Shown here piece by piece: positions 1 through 10,513 of a stretch of DNA of 10,513 bases. Within the stretch, counting starts at the first letter, position 1. Each line of letters begins with the position of its first letter. Under the pieces are notes generated by a model that was not told the origin of the DNA, did no database searches, and was given only the letters and a program-made list of their open reading frames with translations. A program made the position numbers and the translations under genes. Source of the stretch: a virus (lineage: Duplodnaviria; Heunggongvirae; Uroviricota; Caudoviricetes); the IMG/VR virus record IMGVR_UViG_2703718834_000006; one strand, given 5' to 3'.

Positions 1-1875
1 ATGGCTAAAGCATGGAAAGATGTTATCGCTTCTCCACAGTATCAGGCGTTAACTGAAGAACAGAAAGCACAGGCTCAAGCGCAATATTTTGATGAGGTTG
101 TTGCCCCTAAGGCTGGTGACAAATGGGCTGAAGCAAGAGATCAGTTTTATGCAGCATACCCTCCGCATCAGCAGCAGAAAGAAGAACCATCATTGATGCA
201 ACAAGCTGGCGATTGGCTCACAGGTGGTCAAAGTGCAGGGCAAATTGCAGAACAGGCTGGTCGTGGTCTGGTAAACATACCGTTTGACGTATTACAGGGC
301 GGCGCAAGTCTGATTAATGCAATCAGTCAGGGGCTTGGTGGCCCCAAGGTTTTGGATGATGTTTATCGTCCAGTAGACAGACCGACAGACCCCTACGCTC
401 AAGCTGGAGAAACAATTGGCGGGTATTTAGTTCCAGGAGTTGGAACGGCAGGAAGCATGGCTATTGGATCACTGGCAGAGGCCGCAAATCAGAAAGGTGA
501 TTTCGCACAAAATGCAGCTAAAAATGCCGGAGTTAACCTTGCCGCTCAGGGTGTTCTTTCCGCAGCAGCAAAGGGAATAGGGCGTGGAATAACGGCTATA
601 AAAGGTGATATTGCGCCAGAAGTGGCAAAGAAAATTGCCACATCAGAATCGATGGGCGTGACACCAATGACATCTGATGTTATCCCGCCGAAAAATGCTT
701 TCACTCGCGGACTTACTCAGGATGCTGAGGGGGCTTTGCTCGGGACAGGCTCAAAGCGAGCGGAGCAATATGCAACGCGTAGTAAGCTGGTAAGCAATTA
801 TTTTGACCGTTTTGGTGAGTACAACCCTGATGATGTGGTGAAATCTCTGACCACCACGTTAAGGGGACGGAAGGATGCCGCTGGCGCTGTTATCAATGAC
901 GTCACCAATAAAATGGGTAATGCCGCAGTTGATACCACAAATACCATGAATGCTCTGAATACAGCGATCGCAAGACAGGAACGGCTTGGGACTTCTGCCA
1001 ATCAAAGCCTGCTTACATCCTTGCGTAACCTACGTGAAGAATTAGCAAACCCTGCAACTGATTTGGATGTTACGTTTGATCTCTTGCGCCAGCACAGAAC
1101 AGCATTTAGATCTAATGTTCAGGGAGATGCCATGGTCTTCCCCAACCAGGCAAAAGCAGCTACCAATATGGTAGAGAATGCAATGTCAAAAGACCTTCGT
1201 AACGCAGTTGCTAAAAACCTCGGTGCTTCAGACGCAGCAAAATACCTTAAAGCAAATTCCGATTATGCAAACGTTTATAATAAGGTGCTTAATAAAAACA
1301 TTGCTAACAAGCTCAACAAGGCAAGCAGTGAAGCCAGTCCTGAACTTATAAATACTGTTGTATTAAGCAGAAAACCATCTGACGTGAAACGAATCTGGAG
1401 CGCATTGGATGATAAAGGGAAAGATGCTATGCGTGCAGCTTACGTCAGCAAAATAGCGGAAAAGGCCGGTGACTCTCCAGCCAAGTTCATCACGGAAGTT
1501 AATAAGCTGAAATCTCAGTCAGGCGGTGAAATTTACAACACTATTTTTTCTGGAAAGCACATGAAAGAGCTTGATGCTCTTCATGAAGTTCTACAGCAAA
1601 CAGCAAGGTCAGACACCGCAAATGTAGTAACTCAGACGGGGCAATCACAAGCCAACAGGATAAGGACGATTGGCGCAACTGCGACTCTTGGTGTATCAAT
1701 GGGGCTTGAGGCTGGCTTTGGTGCAATGATGCGTTTGTATGAGTCCAAAGCAGCAAGGAATGCGCTCTTACGTCTGGCAAACACTAAAGCTGGAACGCCA
1801 GCTTATGAAAGAGCGCTAAATCAGGCGGCTACTGCCGTGCGCCCGCTCTTAGTTAACGAAGCTACCCGGCAGTAG
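1..1875 (+). CDS. Phage ejection / DNA-transfer (internal virion) protein, P22 gp16-like by position; possibly 5'-partial because the ORF starts at the window edge
   Basis: 624-aa uninterrupted ORF, Ala/Gln/Gly-rich with low-complexity stretches typical of podovirus ejection proteins. It is the last rightward gene before a convergent SieA-like gene and the immI-like module, the position of gene 16 in P22 (609 aa there). No recognisable catalytic motif; the call is from size, composition and synteny. Confidence 0.5.
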
Positions 1876-1897: not shown

Positions 1898-2392
1898 TTA
1901 TTTTATAGTTTTTATGAATTCTTTATTAAATCCCTTCGCTTCTCCGGGGTATCTTCCGAAGACAATTTTTATAAAAACAGAAAAAATAAAGATAGCAACG
2001 CTTAACAACAATTGCAGTATCATTGGAACCCAAAGAACTACAGGCTCTATATTCATGAAACCAAATATTCTTCCGGCGATCATGGCGAAGTACCACACTG
2101 TTATCAGCAAACTTAGTGGCATATGAATTACTGATATTACCAATCCAAGAGCATCAGTAATTCTGTTTTCAAATTTTTCAGGGGAAAACTTTTCTTTAAG
2201 GTAATTCAGTGCGCAGGCCTCATTCTCTGGATTTTCAGCATTTTTCCCTATAGCAATAGAAATCTCAGATATCCTTGATTCAATTCTTTTACGTTTAATA
2301 AAACTAGAAAAAAAGAACCACGCAATCTGCAACCCTATCCCCAGAAATAGAGTTGCGGCAACTAGCACAGCGTAACTCATAGAATCAGACAC
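1898..2392 (-). CDS. Small polytopic inner-membrane protein, SieA-like (superinfection exclusion) by position
   Basis: 164 aa with three to four hydrophobic helices ([24 protein letters not shown]; [26 protein letters not shown]; [28 protein letters not shown]). GTG start at 2392 is preceded by a perfect AGGAGG Shine-Dalgarno 5 nt upstream. Clearly AT-rich relative to its neighbours. P22 carries sieA between gene 16 and mnt in the same orientation. Confidence 0.45.
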
Positions 2393-2452: not shown

Positions 2453-3094
2453 TCAAAGCAACGGGATTTCAAGGTAAACTGCGGTTGCCAAAATACTAAC
2501 ATCTTCATTTCTAACAAGAATATTAGGATACATTGGGTTTAGGGATACTAGGTTTGTCTCTATTTCACCAATGTAAACCTGTTTGAAGCTCAATATTTGC
2601 TCTTTATCCAAAGATGCTATTACATAATCTTTGCTTTTAGCTTTTACTAGAGGGCTGAACGTGACAACCGATCCTCTGGGAAAGCTAATACCTGAACTTG
2701 TAGTCATAGCTTCACCTTCAATAGTCAATGCAAATGCAGAGTCACCAACATTGTATATTGCCGGATGAAATCTAGACGATGAATGTTCACCTGTGTTTAG
2801 GTAATGCATAACTTCATCTAGTTTGAGGATTGGTATTTGCTTTACCAGAACGTCAGGCATGACGTTTTTTGTTCCCGGCCCCTGGCCTTCACCCAGAGCT
2901 AACCACTCAGCCGTAGTGCCTAATGCGTTGGCTAATGCCTGCAATACACGAAGCCGTGGTTTAGCCTCACCACCCTCGTATGCAGCTATTTGACGTTGAA
3001 CAACACCAGCTAATTTTGACAACTGCGCCTGCGTCATACCCCTCGACTGTCTTGCCAGAGATACTCTTGATGGGAATTGATCGTCAAAATTCAT
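2453..3094 (-). CDS. Lambda-CI/LexA-like repressor: N-terminal XRE-type HTH plus C-terminal S24-peptidase-like domain with Ser-to-Ala at the nucleophile position (predicted non-cleavable)
   Basis: 213 aa. N-terminus (residues ~10-65) has a Cro/C1-type HTH pattern (MTQAQLSKLAGVVQRQIAAYEGGEAKPRLRVLQALANALGTTAEWL). C-terminus aligns with lambda CI from memory: DSAFALTIEGEAM vs DSAFWLEVEGNSM, ISFPRGSVV vs PSFPDGMLI, SFKQVY..LVSLNPMYP vs [22 protein letters not shown]. Lys171 corresponds to CI K192, but the Ser149 position is Ala129. No A-G or C-G dipeptide in the linker. GGTGA ribosome-binding site upstream of the ATG at 3094. Confidence 0.8.
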   Translation of the reverse strand: MNFDDQFPSRVSLARQSRGMTQAQLSKLAGVVQRQIAAYEGGEAKPRLRVLQALANALGTTAEWLALGEGQGPGTKNVMPDVLVKQIPILKLDEVMHYLNTGEHSSSRFHPAIYNVGDSAFALTIEGEAMTTSSGISFPRGSVVTFSPLVKAKSKDYVIASLDKEQILSFKQVYIGEIETNLVSLNPMYPNILVRNEDVSILATAVYLEIPLL

Positions 3095-3193: not shown

Positions 3194-3367
3194 ATGACTG
3201 AAAAGATATCTTCCATCAAGCCGCGTCAGGTTCGTTTTACAGAAAAGGTTGATTCACATATCCGCGAATCAGCAAAAAGATGCCATAGGTCAATTCAGGC
3301 AGAGATAGCTTATCGAATGGAGTTATTAATGAAACTTGAGGCAAAGGGCGATGTTGTCATCCAATAA
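3194..3367 (+). CDS. arc: Arc-like ribbon-helix-helix repressor (57 aa); absent from the supplied ORF track
   Basis: ATG at 3194 preceded by AGGAG (3183-3187) at 6-nt spacing; stop TAA at 3365-3367. Translation: MTEKISSIKPRQVRFTEKVDSHIRESAKRCHRSIQAEIAYRMELLMKLEAKGDVVIQ. Layout matches an RHH fold (N-terminal beta strand then two helices) and resembles P22 Arc (..RSVNSEIYQRVMESFKKEGR..) in the RS..EI and K-G motifs. Lies immediately upstream of ant, as in P22. Confidence 0.6.
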   Translation: MTEKISSIKPRQVRFTEKVDSHIRESAKRCHRSIQAEIAYRMELLMKLEAKGDVVIQ

Positions 3368-3369
3368 AA

Positions 3370-3440
3370 ATAGTGAAGCCCGGCAGTGCGCGAACACAAA
3401 CCGGGCCTCTATGTCAGTAACCGTATGCAAGGAAACTAAC
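3370..3440 (-). ncRNA. Candidate sar-like antisense RNA covering the arc-ant spacer and the ant ribosome-binding site (inferred)
   Basis: On the minus strand an extended -10 element TGcTACAAT (complement of 3447-3455) would start transcription near 3440. It would run through the complement of the ant Shine-Dalgarno/start (3429-3443) and end at the GC-rich hairpin 3378-3406, which on this strand is followed by TTCACTATTTTTA. Predicted length about 70 nt, the size and location of the P22 sar RNA. No expression evidence. Confidence 0.3.
3378..3406. terminator. GC-rich stem-loop in the arc-ant spacer; likely intrinsic terminator for leftward (antisense) transcription and possible attenuator of arc read-through
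   Basis: GCCCGG (3378-3383) pairs with CCGGGC (3401-3406); an inner GTG/CAC pairing is possible within the loop. A T-rich tract follows only on the minus strand (complement of 3365-3377). Confidence 0.35.
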
Positions 3441-4067
3441 ATGAATATTGTAGCAAAATCAGATTACAACTTCCACGGAGTTGAGTTGGTGCCCACCCGT
3501 GATATGCATGGTGTTTGGTTTACATCATCTAATATTGCATCTGCACTTAAATATGCAAATAGCCGTGCAGTAACAATGATTTATAACAAGTATAGCGATG
3601 AGTTTAGCGCCGGGATGACTCAGGTACTCGAAGTGAGTACCTCAGGAAATTATCGCAAAAAAGTGCGAGTTTTCTCACTACGCGGTGCCCACCTAATCGC
3701 GATGTTTGCTCGCACTCCGGTAGCCAAAGAGTTCCGCCGCTGGGTGCTGGATATTTTGGATCGGCAGGCAGAATGCTCACCGATTGCAAAACAGTTCACT
3801 GACGAAGAGCTGGTTAATCTCTGCTACTTACAATTGTGGATGGAGAAGAGTCAACAAATGTGCAAACACATCTACCCAGGAATGAAGCAAATTGGTTCTG
3901 AGCTTTCAGGAAGGATTTACGATATTGCATATGAGACTCGCTACATGTCAGAAGAAACCAAGAAATCACTTCTTCGTGAAATGAAGAATCTTGATACCAA
4001 CAATTTTGTCGTAAAGAACGCTCAGCCAATGCTGGCAAAACTGCGCGGCGAGGAATGGATTCATTGA
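3441..4067 (+). CDS. ant: Antirepressor Ant (Bro-N / AntA-type N-terminal domain)
   Basis: ATG at 3441 with AAGGAA ribosome-binding site at 3429-3434. The track's 3336 start is a TTG that overlaps arc and is rejected. N-terminus YNFHGVELVPTRDMHGVWFTSSNIASALKYANSRAVTMIYNKY...VRVFSLRGAHLIAMFARTPVAKEFRRWVLDILD matches the Bro-N/AntA antirepressor pattern (FxF..., WF.a.dva.aL, rG.lia.f..tp.a.efrrWv). Sits downstream of arc. Confidence 0.8.
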   Translation: MNIVAKSDYNFHGVELVPTRDMHGVWFTSSNIASALKYANSRAVTMIYNKYSDEFSAGMTQVLEVSTSGNYRKKVRVFSLRGAHLIAMFARTPVAKEFRRWVLDILDRQAECSPIAKQFTDEELVNLCYLQLWMEKSQQMCKHIYPGMKQIGSELSGRIYDIAYETRYMSEETKKSLLREMKNLDTNNFVVKNAQPMLAKLRGEEWIH

Positions 4068-4154
4068 TTGGTGCACAGGACGGCGCAAAAGAAAACCGCC
4101 AGTGTGCTGCTGGCGGCCTATGTCACACCCTTACTACCACATAAGGAATGCCTA

Positions 4155-4883
4155 ATGACTTTTAAGAATGTAGCAAACATCGGATCCGTTGTCACGGATA
4201 AAACCATTGACAGCCAGCGCCTGCTTGAGATGGTAAATCAGGCTCGTAGACAGTGCGGTGAGCCGGAGGTTCGTAATAACAAATTCATCGAGAAAATTGA
4301 AGATGAATTGGATGGAGAGCACTACACAAAAAGTGTAGTGCAAAAAGCGAACAAAACTTCGATGGTTATCATTGAGATGTCAATCAAGCAAGCATTGCGA
4401 GTTGCCGCTCGCGAGTCAAAAGCCGTTCGCCGCTCACTGGTAGACCAACTTGAAAGCATGCAAGAAGCGCACATTAAAAGCGGTAAATCAGCGAGTGGAC
4501 TTGTTGAGTATCGTCAAGCGCGAACATTGAAAATGACGGTTGAAGCTGTTACCAATCTGTTCGATCTGATGCCAAATCTTGCGCCTGAGGCAAAGCAGAC
4601 AGCGGCAGCAAGTATAATCAACCCGCTCGTTGGTTTTAATGCAATACCTCTTCCGGCAATAGAAGAGCATTACTACTCAGCAGGGGAGGTTGCAGAGCAG
4701 CTTGGAGTAACGGCCAACAAGATTGGTCGCATTGCTAACGCAAACAACCTCAAAACTGAGCAGTACGGGAAGTTCTTCCTGGATAAATCTGCGCATTCCA
4801 GCAAACAGGTGGAAGCATTCCGCTACAATGCGGAAGGCGTTAAAGCACTACAACACCTGATTCATGGGAGTAATGTTGCATAA
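4155..4883 (+). CDS. Hypothetical phage regulatory protein with C-terminal KilAC (ANT)-like HTH segment; possible second antirepressor-type protein
   Basis: ATG at 4155 with AAGGAA at 4143-4148. The track's 4068 start is a TTG directly after the ant stop and is rejected. The C-terminal stretch YYSAGEVAEQLGVTANKIGRIANANNLKTEQYGKFF resembles the KilAC-domain motif of phage antirepressors (..tEiAkelGvsa..lnk.L...g......g). The N-terminal 150 aa are not recognised. Confidence 0.5.
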   Translation: MTFKNVANIGSVVTDKTIDSQRLLEMVNQARRQCGEPEVRNNKFIEKIEDELDGEHYTKSVVQKANKTSMVIIEMSIKQALRVAARESKAVRRSLVDQLESMQEAHIKSGKSASGLVEYRQARTLKMTVEAVTNLFDLMPNLAPEAKQTAAASIINPLVGFNAIPLPAIEEHYYSAGEVAEQLGVTANKIGRIANANNLKTEQYGKFFLDKSAHSSKQVEAFRYNAEGVKALQHLIHGSNVA

Positions 4884-5104
4884 TGGCAAAGAAAAAATAT
4901 GGCATTATGCCGCCAAGAATCAAAGGAAGAGCTAGGGTAAAAGGTGATGCTGGAAGGTATCACATTCTTGGAGTTCTGTGGCATGAGAGAGCTTTAATTT
5001 TAAGTAGACCTCATGGGTACATTGAAAAGGTATCTATAGATAGAGTAGAGATTCTTCCCCTTACACCTGAAGAAGAAGAAACGTACGGACTTTTTGATAA
5101 CTAA
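4883..5104 (+). CDS. Hypothetical small basic protein (73 aa), translationally coupled to the upstream gene
   Basis: Its ATG overlaps the upstream TAA in ATAATGG (4881-4885). Basic N-terminus (MAKKKYGIMPPRIKGRARVKGDAGR) and acidic C-terminus (TPEEEETYGLFDN). Followed by a strong intrinsic terminator. No family recognised. Confidence 0.45.
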   Translation: MAKKKYGIMPPRIKGRARVKGDAGRYHILGVLWHERALILSRPHGYIEKVSIDRVEILPLTPEEEETYGLFDN

Positions 5105-5110
5105 CCAACT

Positions 5111-5137
5111 AAACCCGCTTAATCGCGGGTTTTTTCT
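5111..5137 (+). terminator. Rho-independent terminator ending the arc-ant-orf-orf operon; hairpin overlaps the mnt stop codon on the opposite strand
   Basis: AAACCCGC-TTAATC-GCGGGTTTTTTCTTTT: stem CCCGC/GCGGG flanked by A/T pairs, followed by a run of six T (5130-5135). On the minus strand only TTT follows, so termination is probably mainly rightward. Confidence 0.75.
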
Positions 5138-5376
5138 TTTCTAAGGATATCAGCCGCAACTTCTTTTACTCGTTCCGAGATTAATGAGGCCAGCCTCTCT
5201 TCTTCATCACGATACCCGCTTACAGGTGGTGGTTTGGAGAGTGATTCTTCCATCGTAGCCACAATTTCGGAATTGATAGACCTGTTATTCATTTTTGCAC
5301 GCTGTTTAATCTTGGCGTGCAACTCGTGCGTAAGCCTCAAGTGGAACTGCGCCTCATCGTATTTGCTGTACATCAT
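5119..5376 (-). CDS. mnt: Mnt-like ribbon-helix-helix repressor (85 aa)
   Basis: MMYSKYDEAQFHLRLTHELHAKIKQRAKMNNRSINSEIVATMEESLSKPPPVSGYRDEEERLASLISERVKEVAADILRKEKTRD aligns along its length with P22 Mnt as recalled (..PHFNFRMPMEVREKLKFRAEANGRSMNSELLQIVQDALSKPSPVTGYRNDAERLA..). Start is ATGATG at 5376/5373 with a GAGG ribosome-binding site. The 217-aa track ORF (5119-5772) is an in-frame upstream extension and is rejected. Confidence 0.8.
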   Translation of the reverse strand: MMYSKYDEAQFHLRLTHELHAKIKQRAKMNNRSINSEIVATMEESLSKPPPVSGYRDEEERLASLISERVKEVAADILRKEKTRD

Positions 5377-5508: not shown

Positions 5509-7569
5509 ATGACAGACATTACAGCCAATGTTGTAGTAAGCATGCCTTCGCAACTCTTCACTATGGCTCGTTCTTTTAAAGCCGTAGCTAATGGAAAGAT
5601 TTATATCGGAAAAATTGACACTGATCCGGTAAATACTGAAAACCAGATTCAGGTTTATGTGGAGAACGAAGACGGCTCTCACGTTCCTGTTTCGCAACCA
5701 ATCATCATTAACGCTGCTGGTTACCCGGTATATAACGGACAGATTGCCAAATTCGTTACCGTGCAAGGCCATTCTATGGCTGTTTATGATGCATATGGTG
5801 CGCAGCAGTTCTATTTTCCGAATGTGCTGAAGTATGACCCTGATCAGTTCAAAGTTTTACTGACAGGGAACGAAGGTTCGACATATATTGGAGATGGCGC
5901 AGGAACTGTAAGCGATTCGCTAAGAAGCTTGGAACATGAGTTTGAACTAATCCAAAGTTTGGATGAAAGGCCAAATCCACCACCTACAGAAGGATATTCA
6001 GGGTATAAGCGCTGGAACCCGATTCATGAAGATGGTTTTCAACTTGGCAGATATACGTTTAAAACTCCAACGCATGTTGATTTTCAGTTTGTATGCGACC
6101 CAATAAATAGTGACATTGGACCAATATTTTCTATGGGCATGGATGGTATAGATCAGCGATCAGCATTTTTTTCTCAAGACAGCTATGAAATTAGAAATGT
6201 AATGATGGATGGGGGGACGGCAAAGCTTGTTGAATTTGAGCCATGGACATCTCATATGGCAACAGTAGAGAAATGTCGTGTTATCAATCCTGAAGATAGC
6301 AACGAGTGGGTAGTTAATTTTAAAGCACAAAATTGGTGGCCACATATTATAAATAATACATACATGGAATATAACGATCACGCCAATAATTTTGTCAAGG
6401 CAATTGATGATGGTGGTAACACAACAGATAGATATTCAGGAAATAGTAGGCTTTTTATTGCATTTAATAGATGTGCATGGCAGGGTGGTAGCGCTGTCGG
6501 TACTGGCATTATGTCATATACATCTGCTGTCGCAACGAGAATAAAAGACAACTCCGCACAGAATGCAAAAACATGCGTTATTTTTGGATATCCATCAACG
6601 TTTTCTTCAGTTGATGGACTTTATTGCGAGATGGCATTTGGACACCAACAAGTCGTACAAATTGGCGATTCAGAAACGACATCGCAGCAGATACTGACTG
6701 ACATTACTATAAATGATGTTTATGCTAATTTACATGGCATAAACTCAAACAGAATAATTGTTGCTGGGAATGATGATGTGATAATGAACTATTTGGAGGT
6801 TGACAAGATATTTATTTCAAATATTCCAGGGTCAGGTTTTATTCAGCCAATAATATCAATTAACGATTTGCCATATCAAAAGATTGTTGCAGGAAGGATT
6901 ACTGCTGAAAATATGCCGCTTCTTCCGTTAACATCCAACCATGTTTCTGTTATTGATAAATACAACGCAGATATACCAGCTCTGAATGGTGACATTATTT
7001 ATATAGAGAACAGTACAGTAAGTATTCCTCCCAACTCATCAACTGCTGTTGCTCCTGGATGGTTTGTAAGATCAACATCTAATACAGTGTTTACTAGGAG
7101 TGGTGCAGGGACTCCAAACAATGCATTGAGAATGAGTCGTTATATTGCATCTGTTCTTAGTAATGCTGGCGCAACGACATCGATTACATTCGAACATCCA
7201 CGAGCCGACTTGGTGAATGGTGAGGCAGTGACAGTCCAGGCTTTGTTTAACGCTGATGTTGAACTAACATTTTTAGTGCACATATATGTAGCAAATGACA
7301 ATGGAGCAAGAACTACACTACTTTCAAAAACATTAGTAGGTGGAGGCTCGTGGAAGGAAATGACCTTTACGGTTGGAGTTTCAGGGGTTGAAAATACTAA
7401 ATCATGTATAGTTGTAGAGATCGGAGCCACAACACCATACTCTACTAATATTTTTGTCACAGGGCATCGCATGAACAGAGGTCGCTTTGGCCTGTGCGGA
7501 GCGGCTAATACTTTTAGCTACGCTGAAACTGAAAGGATGAAGTCGGATTATGATTATATAACCCCATAG
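5509..7569 (+). CDS. Tailspike protein: P22-type N-terminal head-binding domain fused to a divergent receptor-binding domain
   Basis: 686 aa; GGAG ribosome-binding site 9 nt upstream. Residues 1-116 ([42 protein letters not shown]...[15 protein letters not shown]...[10 protein letters not shown]) are near-identical to the P22 gp9 head-binding domain as recalled. After about nt 5857 the sequence has no resemblance to the P22 endorhamnosidase domain and becomes visibly AT-rich. Confidence 0.9.
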
Positions 7570-8064: not shown

Positions 8065-9075
8065 CTAACCTTCAGCTACTATAATTTCTTTTCTCTTTCT
8101 TCTTAAGAACGGCTTTTCGATATAATAATAAGAAACAGTCGCCAGTAATGTAGTTGCAAAAAGACTAAGAGCTATGGATGGGATGAATTTATTAGTTATA
8201 TTATTTATAATGATCTGTTGTACTGGGAATGCGTATATATACAAACCATAAGATATATCAATCCTTCCGTTTATAACCCTGTCTTTAATGGTTAGGCCAA
8301 GAACAATAATTATAACAGACAAACATAGTGGCGCTACAATTTGTATTTCCGGCTTACCAGTCACGGCAATAAGCAACAATAAGGCAGTAATGAACACTTG
8401 CTTTTTATACTTCAACCATGACTCAGTAGTCATTGACAATAAAGCACCAAAAAAGAATGGCATGCCAAATAATGATAATGATTTAAAAGGCACACTAAAA
8501 TATGTGTAATTTTCAGGATAGAAGTTGAAAATTATTGTGGAAAGTATGCATGTAACTAATAATAAAGCAGGCCCGACCCATGTGAACGATATAGAGAGCG
8601 CAAGGCCAATTATTAGATAGCATGAAAATTCTATAGGCAGCGTCCAAAGGCTTCCATTAATAACATGAGGGTAAAAGTAATCAGAAAACACTCCATCCAC
8701 ATAACTCTGCAGGAAAAAAGTATTTCTTATGATATTTAAGTATGGCTGGGAAGAAAATAAATATGCGTAACTATTATTGGAGTTAAATTCTACTGCGACA
8801 AATAAATACATAACAACAGAGCATACAAATAATGCAGGAAATATACGCAGACACCTTTTCCTCATGAACTCGATAAACGAACCAGATGAATTAAAACTTT
8901 TTGGCATTAAGAAACCAGATAAACAAAAGAAAATTGCAACTGCGACCGCACCATAACTATCCCATTGAAGAAAAACAGGCTCATGATCACCAGATAACCT
9001 GAAGTGATGAGAAAATAAAACCATGTAGGCGGCGACATGTCTAATTATATCAAATGAATTATTTCGCTCGCTCAT
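8065..9075 (-). CDS. Integral-membrane acyltransferase family 3 protein (Oac-like; putative O-antigen acetylase for lysogenic conversion)
   Basis: 336 aa with about 10 predicted transmembrane helices. Carries acyltransferase-3 hallmark motifs: SFDIIRHVAAYMVLFSHH (R/H motif), YGAVAVAIFFCLSGFLM, RKRCLRIFPALF and SYGLYIYAFPVQ. Strong GAGGAG ribosome-binding site 5 nt upstream of the ATG at 9075. Very AT-rich. Position between tailspike and int matches oac in phage Sf6. Confidence 0.8.
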   Translation of the reverse strand: MSERNNSFDIIRHVAAYMVLFSHHFRLSGDHEPVFLQWDSYGAVAVAIFFCLSGFLMPKSFNSSGSFIEFMRKRCLRIFPALFVCSVVMYLFVAVEFNSNNSYAYLFSSQPYLNIIRNTFFLQSYVDGVFSDYFYPHVINGSLWTLPIEFSCYLIIGLALSISFTWVGPALLLVTCILSTIIFNFYPENYTYFSVPFKSLSLFGMPFFFGALLSMTTESWLKYKKQVFITALLLLIAVTGKPEIQIVAPLCLSVIIIVLGLTIKDRVINGRIDISYGLYIYAFPVQQIIINNITNKFIPSIALSLFATTLLATVSYYYIEKPFLRRKRKEIIVAEG

Positions 9076-9355: not shown

Positions 9356-10513
9356 TCACTCAACCTTTTCATCAATCCAGTCCGCCCACCATTGCATCAT
9401 TTCTCTGCGTTTATCGAGATACTGAGCATGGTTGTAAATCCCACGCACAGATCCGCCGTTGGCATGTGCCAGTTGCACTTCAATAGCGTCAGCAGGCCAT
9501 TCGTGCTCGTTCATAATTGTGCTGAATTCATGCCTGAATCCGTGACCGCTTTCCAGACCCTCATAGCCGATTTGTTTGATCACAAGCAATACCGCGTTCT
9601 CGCAGATTGGCTTCTTCTTATCGTTGCGCCCGGCAAAAACAAACTCTGATACTGGTTTAGTGATGGAGCTTAGCGTAGTGAGAAGTTCAACCACCTGGTC
9701 TGACATAGGAACCACATGAATCCTGCGTCCCTTCATCACACTGGCGTCGATAGTGATAATCCTGTTTTCAAAATCGACGTTCTTCCATAGCATGGAACGA
9801 AGCTCTTTCGTTCTTAGGGCAGTGTAGCGTAAAACTTTGGTCGCAATAAGCGATACGATACTTCCTGAAAATGTTGCCAGTGCTTTATTGAATGCTGGGA
9901 TCTGGTCGGCAGGTAAAAACGGGAAGTTTTTCTTGCGGTATCCCTTCATGGCGTCAGCAAGGTCAGGTGCCGGGTTATATTTAGCCCTACCGGTAACAAT
10001 AGCGTAACGGAAAACCTCGCCGCATCTTCTGCGTGCTTTATTGGCTCGCTCCATTGCACCGCGATCTTCAAACCTGCGGATTACTTCCAGCAGTTGCATA
10101 GGCTCAATATCCTGAATTTCAAGGCCGCCGATGATAGGTAAAATGTCGTCATCAAACATTTTTGCAAGTTCAGTTGCATAGCCTACTGACCAGACTTGCT
10201 TCTTGTGCTCGTACCATTCCTTGTAAATCGCACTAAAGGAATTGTTGTTAGACGAAGCCTTTTTCGCTTTTACCGGATCGATGCCAACCGAGATGTCTTT
10301 CCTCGCAGTCCATGCTTTATCCCTTGCCTCCTGCAAAGTCATAAGCGGATATTTTCCTACGGTCAGGATTTTCTCCTTACCGTCAATCTTGTAGCGAAGC
10401 TGCCATACCTTTTTCCCTGACACAGGGACATAAAGGTACAGGCCATTACCATCGAGTAGGCGGTATGGTTTTTCTTTCGGCTTTGCTGCTTCAATCTGCT
10501 TAACGGTGAGCAT
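9356..10513 (-). CDS. int: Tyrosine site-specific integrase (P4/P22-type, with N-terminal arm-binding domain); complete, start codon at the last bases of the window
   Basis: 385 aa. N-terminus MLTVKQIEAAKPKEKPYRLLDGNGLYLYVPVSGKKVWQLRYKIDGKEKILTVGKYPLMTLQEARDKA is the canonical start of P4-like integrases. C-terminus holds the catalytic region (HGFRHEFST...VQLAHANGGSVRGIYNHAQY) with the H-x-x-R and Tyr nucleophile context. Confidence 0.9.
   Translation of the reverse strand: MLTVKQIEAAKPKEKPYRLLDGNGLYLYVPVSGKKVWQLRYKIDGKEKILTVGKYPLMTLQEARDKAWTARKDISVGIDPVKAKKASSNNNSFSAIYKEWYEHKKQVWSVGYATELAKMFDDDILPIIGGLEIQDIEPMQLLEVIRRFEDRGAMERANKARRRCGEVFRYAIVTGRAKYNPAPDLADAMKGYRKKNFPFLPADQIPAFNKALATFSGSIVSLIATKVLRYTALRTKELRSMLWKNVDFENRIITIDASVMKGRRIHVVPMSDQVVELLTTLSSITKPVSEFVFAGRNDKKKPICENAVLLVIKQIGYEGLESGHGFRHEFSTIMNEHEWPADAIEVQLAHANGGSVRGIYNHAQYLDKRREMMQWWADWIDEKVE

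Follow-up and report, generated by a model that had tools for sequence, protein, structure and literature searches.

Two extra rightward genes follow the antirepressor gene ant in a 10,513-nucleotide (nt) stretch of viral DNA (IMG/VR record IMGVR_UViG_2703718834_000006; the whole stretch is termed the window, and coordinates are counted from its first base) that forms the late-operon end of an Escherichia coli P22-like (Lederbergvirus) prophage. The first, an open reading frame (ORF) encoding 242 amino acids (aa) and termed ORF242, is in our reading a second antirepressor gated by a predicted antisense RNA, sar2, within an extended immI operon, and the second (ORF73, 73 aa) a later, optional acquisition; we put the probability of this reading at roughly 0.6. 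In this reading the region is the distal half of an extended immI-type operon, and the evidence is drawn from the reality of the two genes, their homology and synteny, the conservation of a promoter and a hairpin, and the pattern of presence and absence of ORF73. In P22, ant and gene 9 are separated by a terminator and nothing else, as a preliminary description of the window correctly noted, whereas the window carries:

4155–4883, plus strand: ORF242, putative second antirepressor gene (ATG 4155, TAA 4881–4883; AAGGA Shine-Dalgarno sequence 4144–4148)
4883–5104, plus strand: ORF73, optional small gene (ATG 4883, TAA 5102–5104)

ORF242 and ORF73 are genuine genes

ORF242 has 2112 homologues in the protein database, spread across Enterobacterales, and ratios of non-synonymous to synonymous substitution (dN/dS) of 0.10–0.29, mostly 0.16–0.21, against E. 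coli, Klebsiella-phage and Salmonella alleles, and is therefore taken as a real gene. A longer, TTG-initiated version starting at 4068 is used by neither the homologues nor RefSeq. For ORF73, 8 alleles differ at 17 variable sites, 12 of which fall at third codon positions; the summed ratio of non-synonymous to synonymous polymorphism (pN/pS) of 0.075, the existence of distant homologues and a confident AlphaFold model identify it likewise as a real gene. Thus, both genes lie where the preliminary description had placed them, and both are under purifying selection rather than chance ORFs.

A P1 Ant-type core in ORF242

Over its full length ORF242 matches the PHROG family phrog_1726, labelled ‘anti-repressor’ (E 5e-101, residues 1–242 against profile positions 1–264), and its full-length relatives of ∼60% identity are annotated ‘antirepressor protein’ in Shiga toxin 2a (Stx2a) phages. 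A tblastn search of phage genomes brought to light a relationship to the Ant1/Ant2 proteins of phage P1: residues 14–106 of ORF242 are 66% identical to residues 112–206 of P1 Ant1 (BLASTP, E 6e-39), and hhalign recovers the same N-terminal core, and only this core, with a probability of 99.95%. The P1 record states that the ant product antagonises C1 repression via an Ant1/Ant2/C1 complex. The layout of ORF242 comprises the P1 Ant-type core (∼14–106), a helical linker and a C-terminal domain (∼176–240) that models as a MerR-like winged helix, with weak Pfam matches to HTH_17 and HTH_31 at residues 171–196. It is thus the N-terminal domain that is recognisable, and not a C-terminal KilAC-like segment as first proposed: neither ORF242 nor any of 24 homologues matches PF03374 (KilAC), a domain that P1 Ant1 itself matches at 1e-30, and hhalign comparisons with P1 Ant1 and P1 KilA align nothing to their KilAC domains. 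As the N-terminal core matches P1 Ant and the C-terminal domain is not detectably KilAC, ORF242 follows the P1 Ant2 plan, a core plus a C-terminal helix-turn-helix (HTH)-type domain, with the C-terminal domain swapped. Domain shuffling is common in such phage proteins.

Other affiliations were not obtained. ORF242 gives no BLASTP alignment with P22 Ant and no Pfam match to P22AR_C (PF10548), although the ant gene upstream carries that domain. Pfam, NCBIfam and PADLOC scans of ORF242 and ORF73 returned nothing significant; ORF73 had no match to the PADLOC defence models and ORF242 only chance-level ones (E 0.004 or weaker). PDB sequence searches with single sequences and a profile gave no match.

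Within E. coli, ORF242 is a mosaic in which residues ∼20–76 (window 4215–4385) occur in at least three sharply different allelic types, and residues 77–242 are nearly identical. Such a mosaic pattern would suit a specificity-determining surface.

Traces of ORF242 are also encountered elsewhere. A piece of 45–49 nt (4311–4358), which includes a perfect 8-bp inverted repeat (CACTACACaaaaaGTGTAGTG), occurs as an unannotated remnant in various enterotoxigenic, Shiga toxin-producing and other E. coli genomes; in one inspected locus (L092, 2501–2549), which belongs to a prophage without ORF242, it is flanked by the ant terminator and the tailspike gene, and it looks like a deletion or recombination scar. 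In E. coli HS (L006, 5001–6802) the ORF242 homologue is interrupted by an element of the IS3 insertion sequence family, an insertion that appears in the ‘HS-1’ ant moron drawing of the 2008 epsilon34 paper.

ORF242 is the third cistron of a mobile repressor/arc/ant module

The features that surround ORF242 and ORF73 are as follows:

2453–3094, minus strand: CI-like repressor gene, HTH_3 and Peptidase_S24 (Pfam 9e-13 and 1e-12), divergent and in the position that Mnt occupies in P22
3116–3144, plus strand: candidate promoter Pant, TTGACT-17-AATAAT (consensus scan, 10/12 matches; function suggested by position)
3194–3367, plus strand: first cistron, a 57-aa arc-like gene of the ribbon-helix-helix type (Pfam matches to Arc and ParD_like, both weak; phrog_10182, 2e-37)
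3441–4067, plus strand: ant, 208 aa, second cistron (Pfam Bro-N 2e-10 and P22_AR_C 3e-14; phrog_245, ‘anti-repressor Ant’)
5111–5132, plus strand: intrinsic terminator at the operon end (terminator scan; 8-bp stem, then TTTTCTTTT)
5119–5376, minus strand: mnt-like Arc-family repressor gene, convergent with the operon (Pfam Arc 4e-14; 45% identity to P22 Mnt, E 5e-23)

In all loci examined ORF242 is directly next to a Bro-N type ant, ∼80 nt 3′ of it. Wherever it was called or found by similarity, an arc-like gene of 55–57 aa precedes ant, and a divergent repressor gene of either the Arc/Mnt-like or the HTH-S24 type lies upstream; this arc/ant-type gene order, with the antirepressor cistron divergent from the repressor, is found in the window and in at least 30 related loci. 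In E. coli, podovirus-type prophages carry the module between gene 16 and the tailspike gene, and myovirus-type prophages carry it between an SLT-domain protein and baseplate genes; in siphovirus-type prophages of Morganella, Serratia and Salmonella it lies between the tail chaperone and tape-measure genes. In other species, represented by one genome each, ant stands immediately 5′ of the full-length ORF242 relative in 11 of 11 cases. As the same gene order recurs across prophage types and in all 11 species, the mobile unit is the whole repressor/arc/ant/ORF242 module with ORF242 as its constant third cistron, and not the self-contained inserted two-gene cassette that had been suggested. We infer that arc, ant, ORF242 and, where present, ORF73 are co-transcribed; the candidate promoter of this operon, as judged from its position, is Pant.

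The 3′ end of the operon is constant, the terminator at 5111–5132 being invariant whether or not a locus carries ORF73. Its stem contains the stop codon of the mnt-like gene (5119–5121), so that one hairpin is common to both convergent units. The RefSeq relatives of the arc-like gene are annotated ‘Arc family DNA-binding protein’, and the window Ant is 29% identical to the C-terminus of P22 Ant. The CI-like protein is presumed, from its position, to be the repressor of the ant operon. It aligns with lambda CI, an Ala replacing the nucleophilic Ser (IEGEAMT versus VEGNSMT) and the Lys being retained (FKQ versus FKK); with Ala in place of the catalytic Ser, self-cleavage may be impossible, and the ant operon may therefore not be directly SOS-inducible through this protein.

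A predicted second sar-like RNA opposite the ORF242 start

Two elements on the minus strand are placed opposite the translation starts of the two antirepressor cistrons:

∼3366–3441 (ends approximate), minus strand: sar1, homologue of P22 sar, opposite the ant ribosome-binding site
4085–4160, minus strand: sar2, predicted ∼75-nt antisense RNA, complementary to the Shine-Dalgarno sequence and start codon of ORF242
4119–4093, with a T-run to ∼4085, minus strand: sar2 terminator hairpin (terminator scan), within the 87-nt ant–ORF242 gap
4167–4195, minus strand: predicted sar2 promoter, GTGACA-17-TGcTACATT (scan), embedded in ORF242 codons 5–14

The sar1 element aligns with P22 sar as annotated, promoter (TTGCTAcAaTATTCATGTT) included, folds into two hairpins as P22 sar does (z = −6.2) and has a TG-extended −10 element, TACAAT, at 3452–3447; Rfam reported no sar1. 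A ∼75-nt RNA is predicted at ORF242 because a minus-strand promoter-like site and an intrinsic terminator flank its start. The sar2 hairpin is conserved in 14 divergent sequences with 100% of cells paired and 3 pairs changed on both sides, a degree of pairing and covariation that no shuffled or slid control equals. In the sar2 promoter the −35 element, the TG and positions 1, 2, 4 and 6 of the −10 element (T1, A2, A4, T6) are invariant across 16 loci, whereas the residues encoded by the overlapping codons vary (Asn or Thr; Val or Leu; Ala, Ser or Thr), and third-position conservation reaches 1.00 at ORF242 codons 5, 6, 7, 12 and 13 against a background of 0.58. With a sar2 covariance model, the element is found in 41 loci at the 5′ end of the gene that follows ant, including genes with only the N-terminal or only the C-terminal half of ORF242. 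Such half-ORF242 genes with the sar2-like element kept at their 5′ side are seen in Proteus, Providencia, Pantoea and Xenorhabdus (L046–L048, L062–L063, L074 and others). In the half-ORF242 loci, domains are swapped behind a constant regulatory element.

P22 sar and the predicted sar2 have much of their design in common. For both, the promoter lies in the first codons of the target, the RNA measures ∼70–75 nt and covers the Shine-Dalgarno sequence and ATG, and two hairpins are formed with an intrinsic terminator in the intercistronic gap. They differ in target (ant for sar, ORF242 for sar2), and their sequences show no significant match. As neither the covariance model nor Rfam yields a match, sar2 is best regarded as a predicted RNA that is analogous, and only possibly homologous, to sar. 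Weak Rfam matches to symR, SgrS and the Trp leader were dismissed as chance-level or as terminator look-alikes.

The hairpin at 4093–4119 might instead work on the plus strand, as an attenuator or an mRNA-processing or mRNA-stabilising element, with no antisense RNA made. Covariation shows that the hairpin matters and is silent on the strand, the complete 77-nt fold has a shuffle z-score of only −2.0, and sar2 is known as a prediction only. The minus strand, however, is the only one on which the invariant T-run follows the hairpin 3′, the plus strand having an A-run before it; a conserved minus-strand promoter, with its invariant −35, 17-nt spacer and TG-extended −10, stands at the distance that a sar-sized RNA would require; and the whole arrangement is that of the annotated P22 sar. 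We therefore consider a purely plus-strand element improbable.

A second antirepressor is favoured for ORF242

A role as second antirepressor is the candidate that the sequence evidence favours for ORF242, on account of the P1 Ant core, the PHROG ‘anti-repressor’ assignment, the constant post-ant position and the sar-like antisense control. This was among the roles listed in the preliminary description, which held that none could be assigned from sequence; that judgement was too pessimistic for ORF242 and is upheld for ORF73. A defence role, listed beside it, is disfavoured by the negative PADLOC scan.

Several points count against antirepressor function under sar2 control. The ‘anti-repressor’ label in PHROG and GenBank is annotation by similarity and not tested function, and literature searches, including those by RefSeq accession and PHROG identifier, retrieved no paper and no experiment on ORF242 or a close homologue. 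A core domain in common with P1 Ant is not proof of the same activity, as the Ant domain that contacts C1 is not known, and the C-terminal domain of ORF242 does not appear to be the P1 Ant KilAC domain. AlphaFold confidence is moderate only, with a predicted local distance difference test (pLDDT) score of 68. Similar architectures include host-killing, DNA-binding regulators such as P1 KilA. With regard to the RNA, the sar2 covariance model matches neither P22 sar nor sar1, Rfam holds no family that matches sar2 better than chance, whether the gathering threshold is applied or E values up to 10 are allowed, and part of the −35 conservation derives from the protein, as the −35 overlaps nearly invariant Val-Thr codons. 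The sar2 transcript itself is so far a prediction.

Some of these points fit a different function, in which ORF242 is a DNA-binding regulator of the KilA/Rha/Bro kind, or a host-toxic protein, that the immI controls keep silent and that acts on host or phage DNA after derepression. Its C-terminal domain resembles DNA-binding MerR-type winged helices with the weak HTH_17 and HTH_31 matches described above, the corresponding gene of Escherichia phage JEP4 is annotated ‘KilA protein’, and tight regulation at two levels, by repressor and by antisense RNA, is equally compatible with a toxic product. On the other hand, P1 Ant, the sole experimentally characterised relative of the N-terminal domain, is an antirepressor, ORF242 is tied to ant-type operons across genera, and hhalign detects no similarity between ORF242 and P1 KilA. 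A KilA-type function is thus worth bearing in mind, if unlikely.

ORF73 is an optional addition to the module

The start codon of ORF73 has one base in common with the ORF242 stop (gcaTAATGg), the overlap from which a stoichiometric pair had been proposed, and a GGGAG motif lies 13–17 nt 5′ of it. ORF73 is present in 54 of 5426 complete E. coli genomes, in each case immediately 3′ of ORF242 and with ≥95% identity. ORF242 (≥80% coverage) is found in 89 E. coli genomes, 54 with and 35 without ORF73; the 11 loci with a full-length ORF242 in other species all lack ORF73, and both the Klebsiella phage phiKp_30 and strain A3 have ORF242 without it. Alignment of loci with and without ORF73 reveals a clean insertion/deletion between the ORF242 stop and the common terminator. 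The G + C content of ORF73 is below that of ORF242, and the His-Gly-Ser codons at the ORF242 end read CAT GGG AGT with ORF73, which creates GGGAG, and CAT GGC TCA without it. This codon pattern fits the coupled translation of a rider gene acquired recently. A promoter scan of the window detected no separate promoter for ORF73. A weak terminator-like hairpin occurs on the minus strand at 4900–4915 (TGGCG-GCATAA-TGCCA, then TATTTTTT), inside the first ORF73 codons; it may be a by-product of Lys codons or a stop for mnt read-through transcripts.

ORF73 belongs to phrog_4977 (PHROG 4977), a function-unknown family that it matches at full length (E 5e-54), as do 43 of 44 members of the ORF73 family. 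Close relatives are few (8 clusters at ≥80% identity), and exhaustive and profile searches gather ∼89 related clusters of 31–47% identity from Pseudomonas, Stutzerimonas, Serratia, Burkholderia, Klebsiella, Citrobacter, Salmonella, Vibrio and Aeromonas, all annotated ‘hypothetical’ and none with a Pfam domain. A 539-aa repeat-containing protein (P0130) matched in a representative search appeared spurious and was dropped. The core motif of the family is KYGxMPPxP..A.VKGDAG.Y.VWG.DW...RVLLDRAG.EW..I..V. In the AlphaFold model of ORF73 (pLDDT 84) five strands form an SH3-like barrel, preceded by a basic N-terminal tail and followed by an acidic helix at the C-terminus; fold searches with it give generic SH3, Tudor, KOW and integrase C-terminal domain matches only.

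The distant relatives are solitary genes without ORF242, located in small-gene arrays on plasmids or elements resembling integrative and conjugative elements (ICEs), or in prophages after ejection-type genes. Long same-strand arrays of genes for 60–130-aa proteins that include ORF73 relatives were seen in Stutzerimonas (L007–L009), Pseudomonas and Burkholderia (L017–L020) and plasmid-like Salmonella contigs (L014–L016), with either SprT-like, N6-methylase, GmrSD_N and Fic genes or TIR/SLATT, RelB/YafQ, Hha and ProQ genes as neighbours. Such settings resemble the accessory or leading regions that plasmids and ICEs carry.

ORF73 is thus an optional add-on and not an obligate partner of ORF242, as 35 of the 89 E. 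coli genomes and all 11 other-species loci lack it and its relatives stand alone. This co-occurrence pattern counts against a stoichiometric pair, and it bears equally on an autonomous two-gene accessory module for defence, anti-defence or exclusion. Such a module would draw on the TAATG overlap, on the observation that E. coli ORF73 is never away from ORF242, on the plasmid/ICE-like arrays in which distant relatives lie beside SprT-like, methylase and GmrSD_N genes, and on the site, which is the gene-flux hotspot recognised as the ‘ant moron’ (PMC2629481), much as the preliminary description had it. The many ORF242 loci without ORF73 (phiKp_30 and strain A3 among them), the ORF73 relatives without ORF242, the negative PADLOC scan, the lack of a separate promoter in the scan and the position of ORF242 inside an ant operon under sar-like control all run counter to it, and we regard such a module as very improbable.

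ORF73 could also modulate the antirepressor system, for instance by inhibiting or stabilising ORF242 or Ant or by setting their specificity, and would then be a recent acquisition of one E. coli lineage of the module. Its translational coupling to ORF242 would be in line with this, as would a Serratia relative that lies two genes upstream of an ORF6N antirepressor-type gene; the icd gene of P1 likewise encodes 73 aa, overlaps ant1 and is annotated as apparently required for ant expression. Nevertheless, no sequence similarity was found between ORF73 and P1 Icd, and a relationship between the two was discarded; most distant relatives have no antirepressor neighbour, and the fold is a generic SH3-like barrel. 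Little credence is given to a modulator on this balance.

Proposed mechanism and comparison with known systems

Antirepressor activity of ORF242, its target and any role of ORF73 are what we infer from the observations above. In a lysogen the immI repressors would hold the arc-ant-ORF242(-ORF73) operon off. On superinfection or loss of these repressors, the arc-like gene, ant, ORF242 and ORF73 would be transcribed rightward from the promoter beside the divergent repressor gene to the terminator at 5111–5132. Each antirepressor cistron would then be further limited by its own antisense RNA, sar2 starting in the first ORF242 codons, covering the Shine-Dalgarno sequence and ATG, and stopping in the ant–ORF242 gap. 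Once released, ORF242 would, like P1 Ant, bind and inactivate a prophage repressor. As the target could be the repressor of its own phage or that of a co-resident prophage, ORF242 would widen the range of repressors neutralised by the module. ORF73 would have been inserted later between the ORF242 stop and the terminator, its translation coupled through TAATG and the upstream GGGAG, and would supply an SH3-like small protein of a kind typical of mobile elements. A bolder extension, doubtful enough to be offered as speculation, sees the module as a portable dual-antirepressor switch whose cistrons are released separately against different repressors and mediate prophage cross-talk, and ORF73 as a new SH3-like effector family (e.g. 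for anti-defence or host takeover) that piggy-backs on an early-expressed operon. The small-gene arrays on plasmids and ICE-like elements may be relevant to such an effector role.

The nearest known system is the immI operon c4-icd-ant of P1. Apart from the 66% identical N-terminal core, P1 Ant and ORF242 have in common the core-linker-C-terminal HTH-type plan, a similar size (264 aa for Ant2, 242 aa for ORF242) and a place in an immunity operon with translation controlled by an antisense RNA, predicted in the case of ORF242. They differ in that the C-terminal domain is KilAC (PF03374) in P1 Ant and a winged helix in the same position in ORF242, that icd lies upstream in P1 whereas no icd-like gene is needed for ORF242, that the P1 RNA is a processed C4 RNA and that of ORF242 a predicted cis-encoded sar-like RNA, and that P1 Ant targets C1 whereas the target of ORF242 would be of the C2/CI type. 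The C2-type repressor of this prophage is encoded outside the window.

In the window, as in the P22 immI region, gene 16/sieA and the tailspike gene flank a rightward arc-ant operon, a Mnt homologue is present, a sar or sar1 element stands opposite the ant ribosome-binding site, and the region is the same ‘ant moron’ (PMC2629481). Unlike in P22, the window Ant has a Bro-N N-terminus and resembles P22 Ant only in its C-terminal domain, the divergent repressor is CI-like, the mnt-like gene is downstream and convergent, and a further sar-like RNA gene is predicted. ORF242 and P22 Ant are unrelated. The location of mnt downstream, also stated in the preliminary description, agrees with the 45% identity of the 5119–5376 product to P22 Mnt.

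The Stx2a phage ‘antirepressor protein’ (e.g. Stx2a_F451_08) has ∼60–63% full-length identity to ORF242 and lies near a second antirepressor gene (AntA + P22AR_C); it differs in being located in the early-left region near int and not in an arc-ant operon, and it has no sar2-like element upstream. The antirepressor of phage 24B has been described as P22 Ant-like in its C-terminal domain (PMC3064807), unlike ORF242, and therefore probably does not belong to the ORF242 family. Trans-acting antirepressors of the Salmonella Gifsy prophages inactivate the repressors of other prophages (Lemire et al. 2011, PMC3121763). Their likeness to ORF242 would be a functional analogy only, known to us from the literature, and supplies the concept behind a benefit of two antirepressors.

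The variability of the region was described in 2008, and the ORF242 family was already annotated as antirepressor; what is added here is the constant place of ORF242 in a portable module, its relationship to P1 Ant, the predicted second sar-like RNA and the optional nature of ORF73. Current understanding is not overturned. If ORF242 works as an antirepressor, many Enterobacterales prophages would carry two unrelated antirepressors in one tightly controlled operon, which would bear on mutual induction of co-resident prophages, on superinfection immunity and on Stx phages with the same gene. With its N-terminal domain in at least three allelic types, ORF242 suits the study of how antirepressor specificity evolves, and the predicted sar2 would add a new target to one of the longest-known cases of antisense control. 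ORF73 represents a family of small mobile-element proteins that is widespread and unstudied, for which the natural alleles with and without the gene provide a clean comparison.

Surrounding genes of the window

The remaining genes of the window, in order, are:

1–1875, plus strand: gene 16, ejection protein
1898–2392, minus strand: sieA-like gene
5509–7569, plus strand: tailspike gene
8065–9075, minus strand: acyltransferase-family gene, adjoining the integrase gene
9356–10513, minus strand: IntS-type integrase gene

Between arc and the beginning of the tailspike gene, the sequence matches Escherichia phage JEP4 at 95% identity, with 92% of the stretch covered. In 2008 Villafane, Casjens and colleagues reported the ‘ant moron’ region to be in rapid flux (PMC2629481), which agrees with the moron hotspot noted for this site. 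The acyltransferase gene may be a serotype-conversion gene. The 950-base cassette has 99.8% identity to its counterpart in an E. coli MS10495 prophage, which adjoins an Arg-tRNA gene, and relatives are integrated beside an Arg-tRNA gene, next to yfdC.

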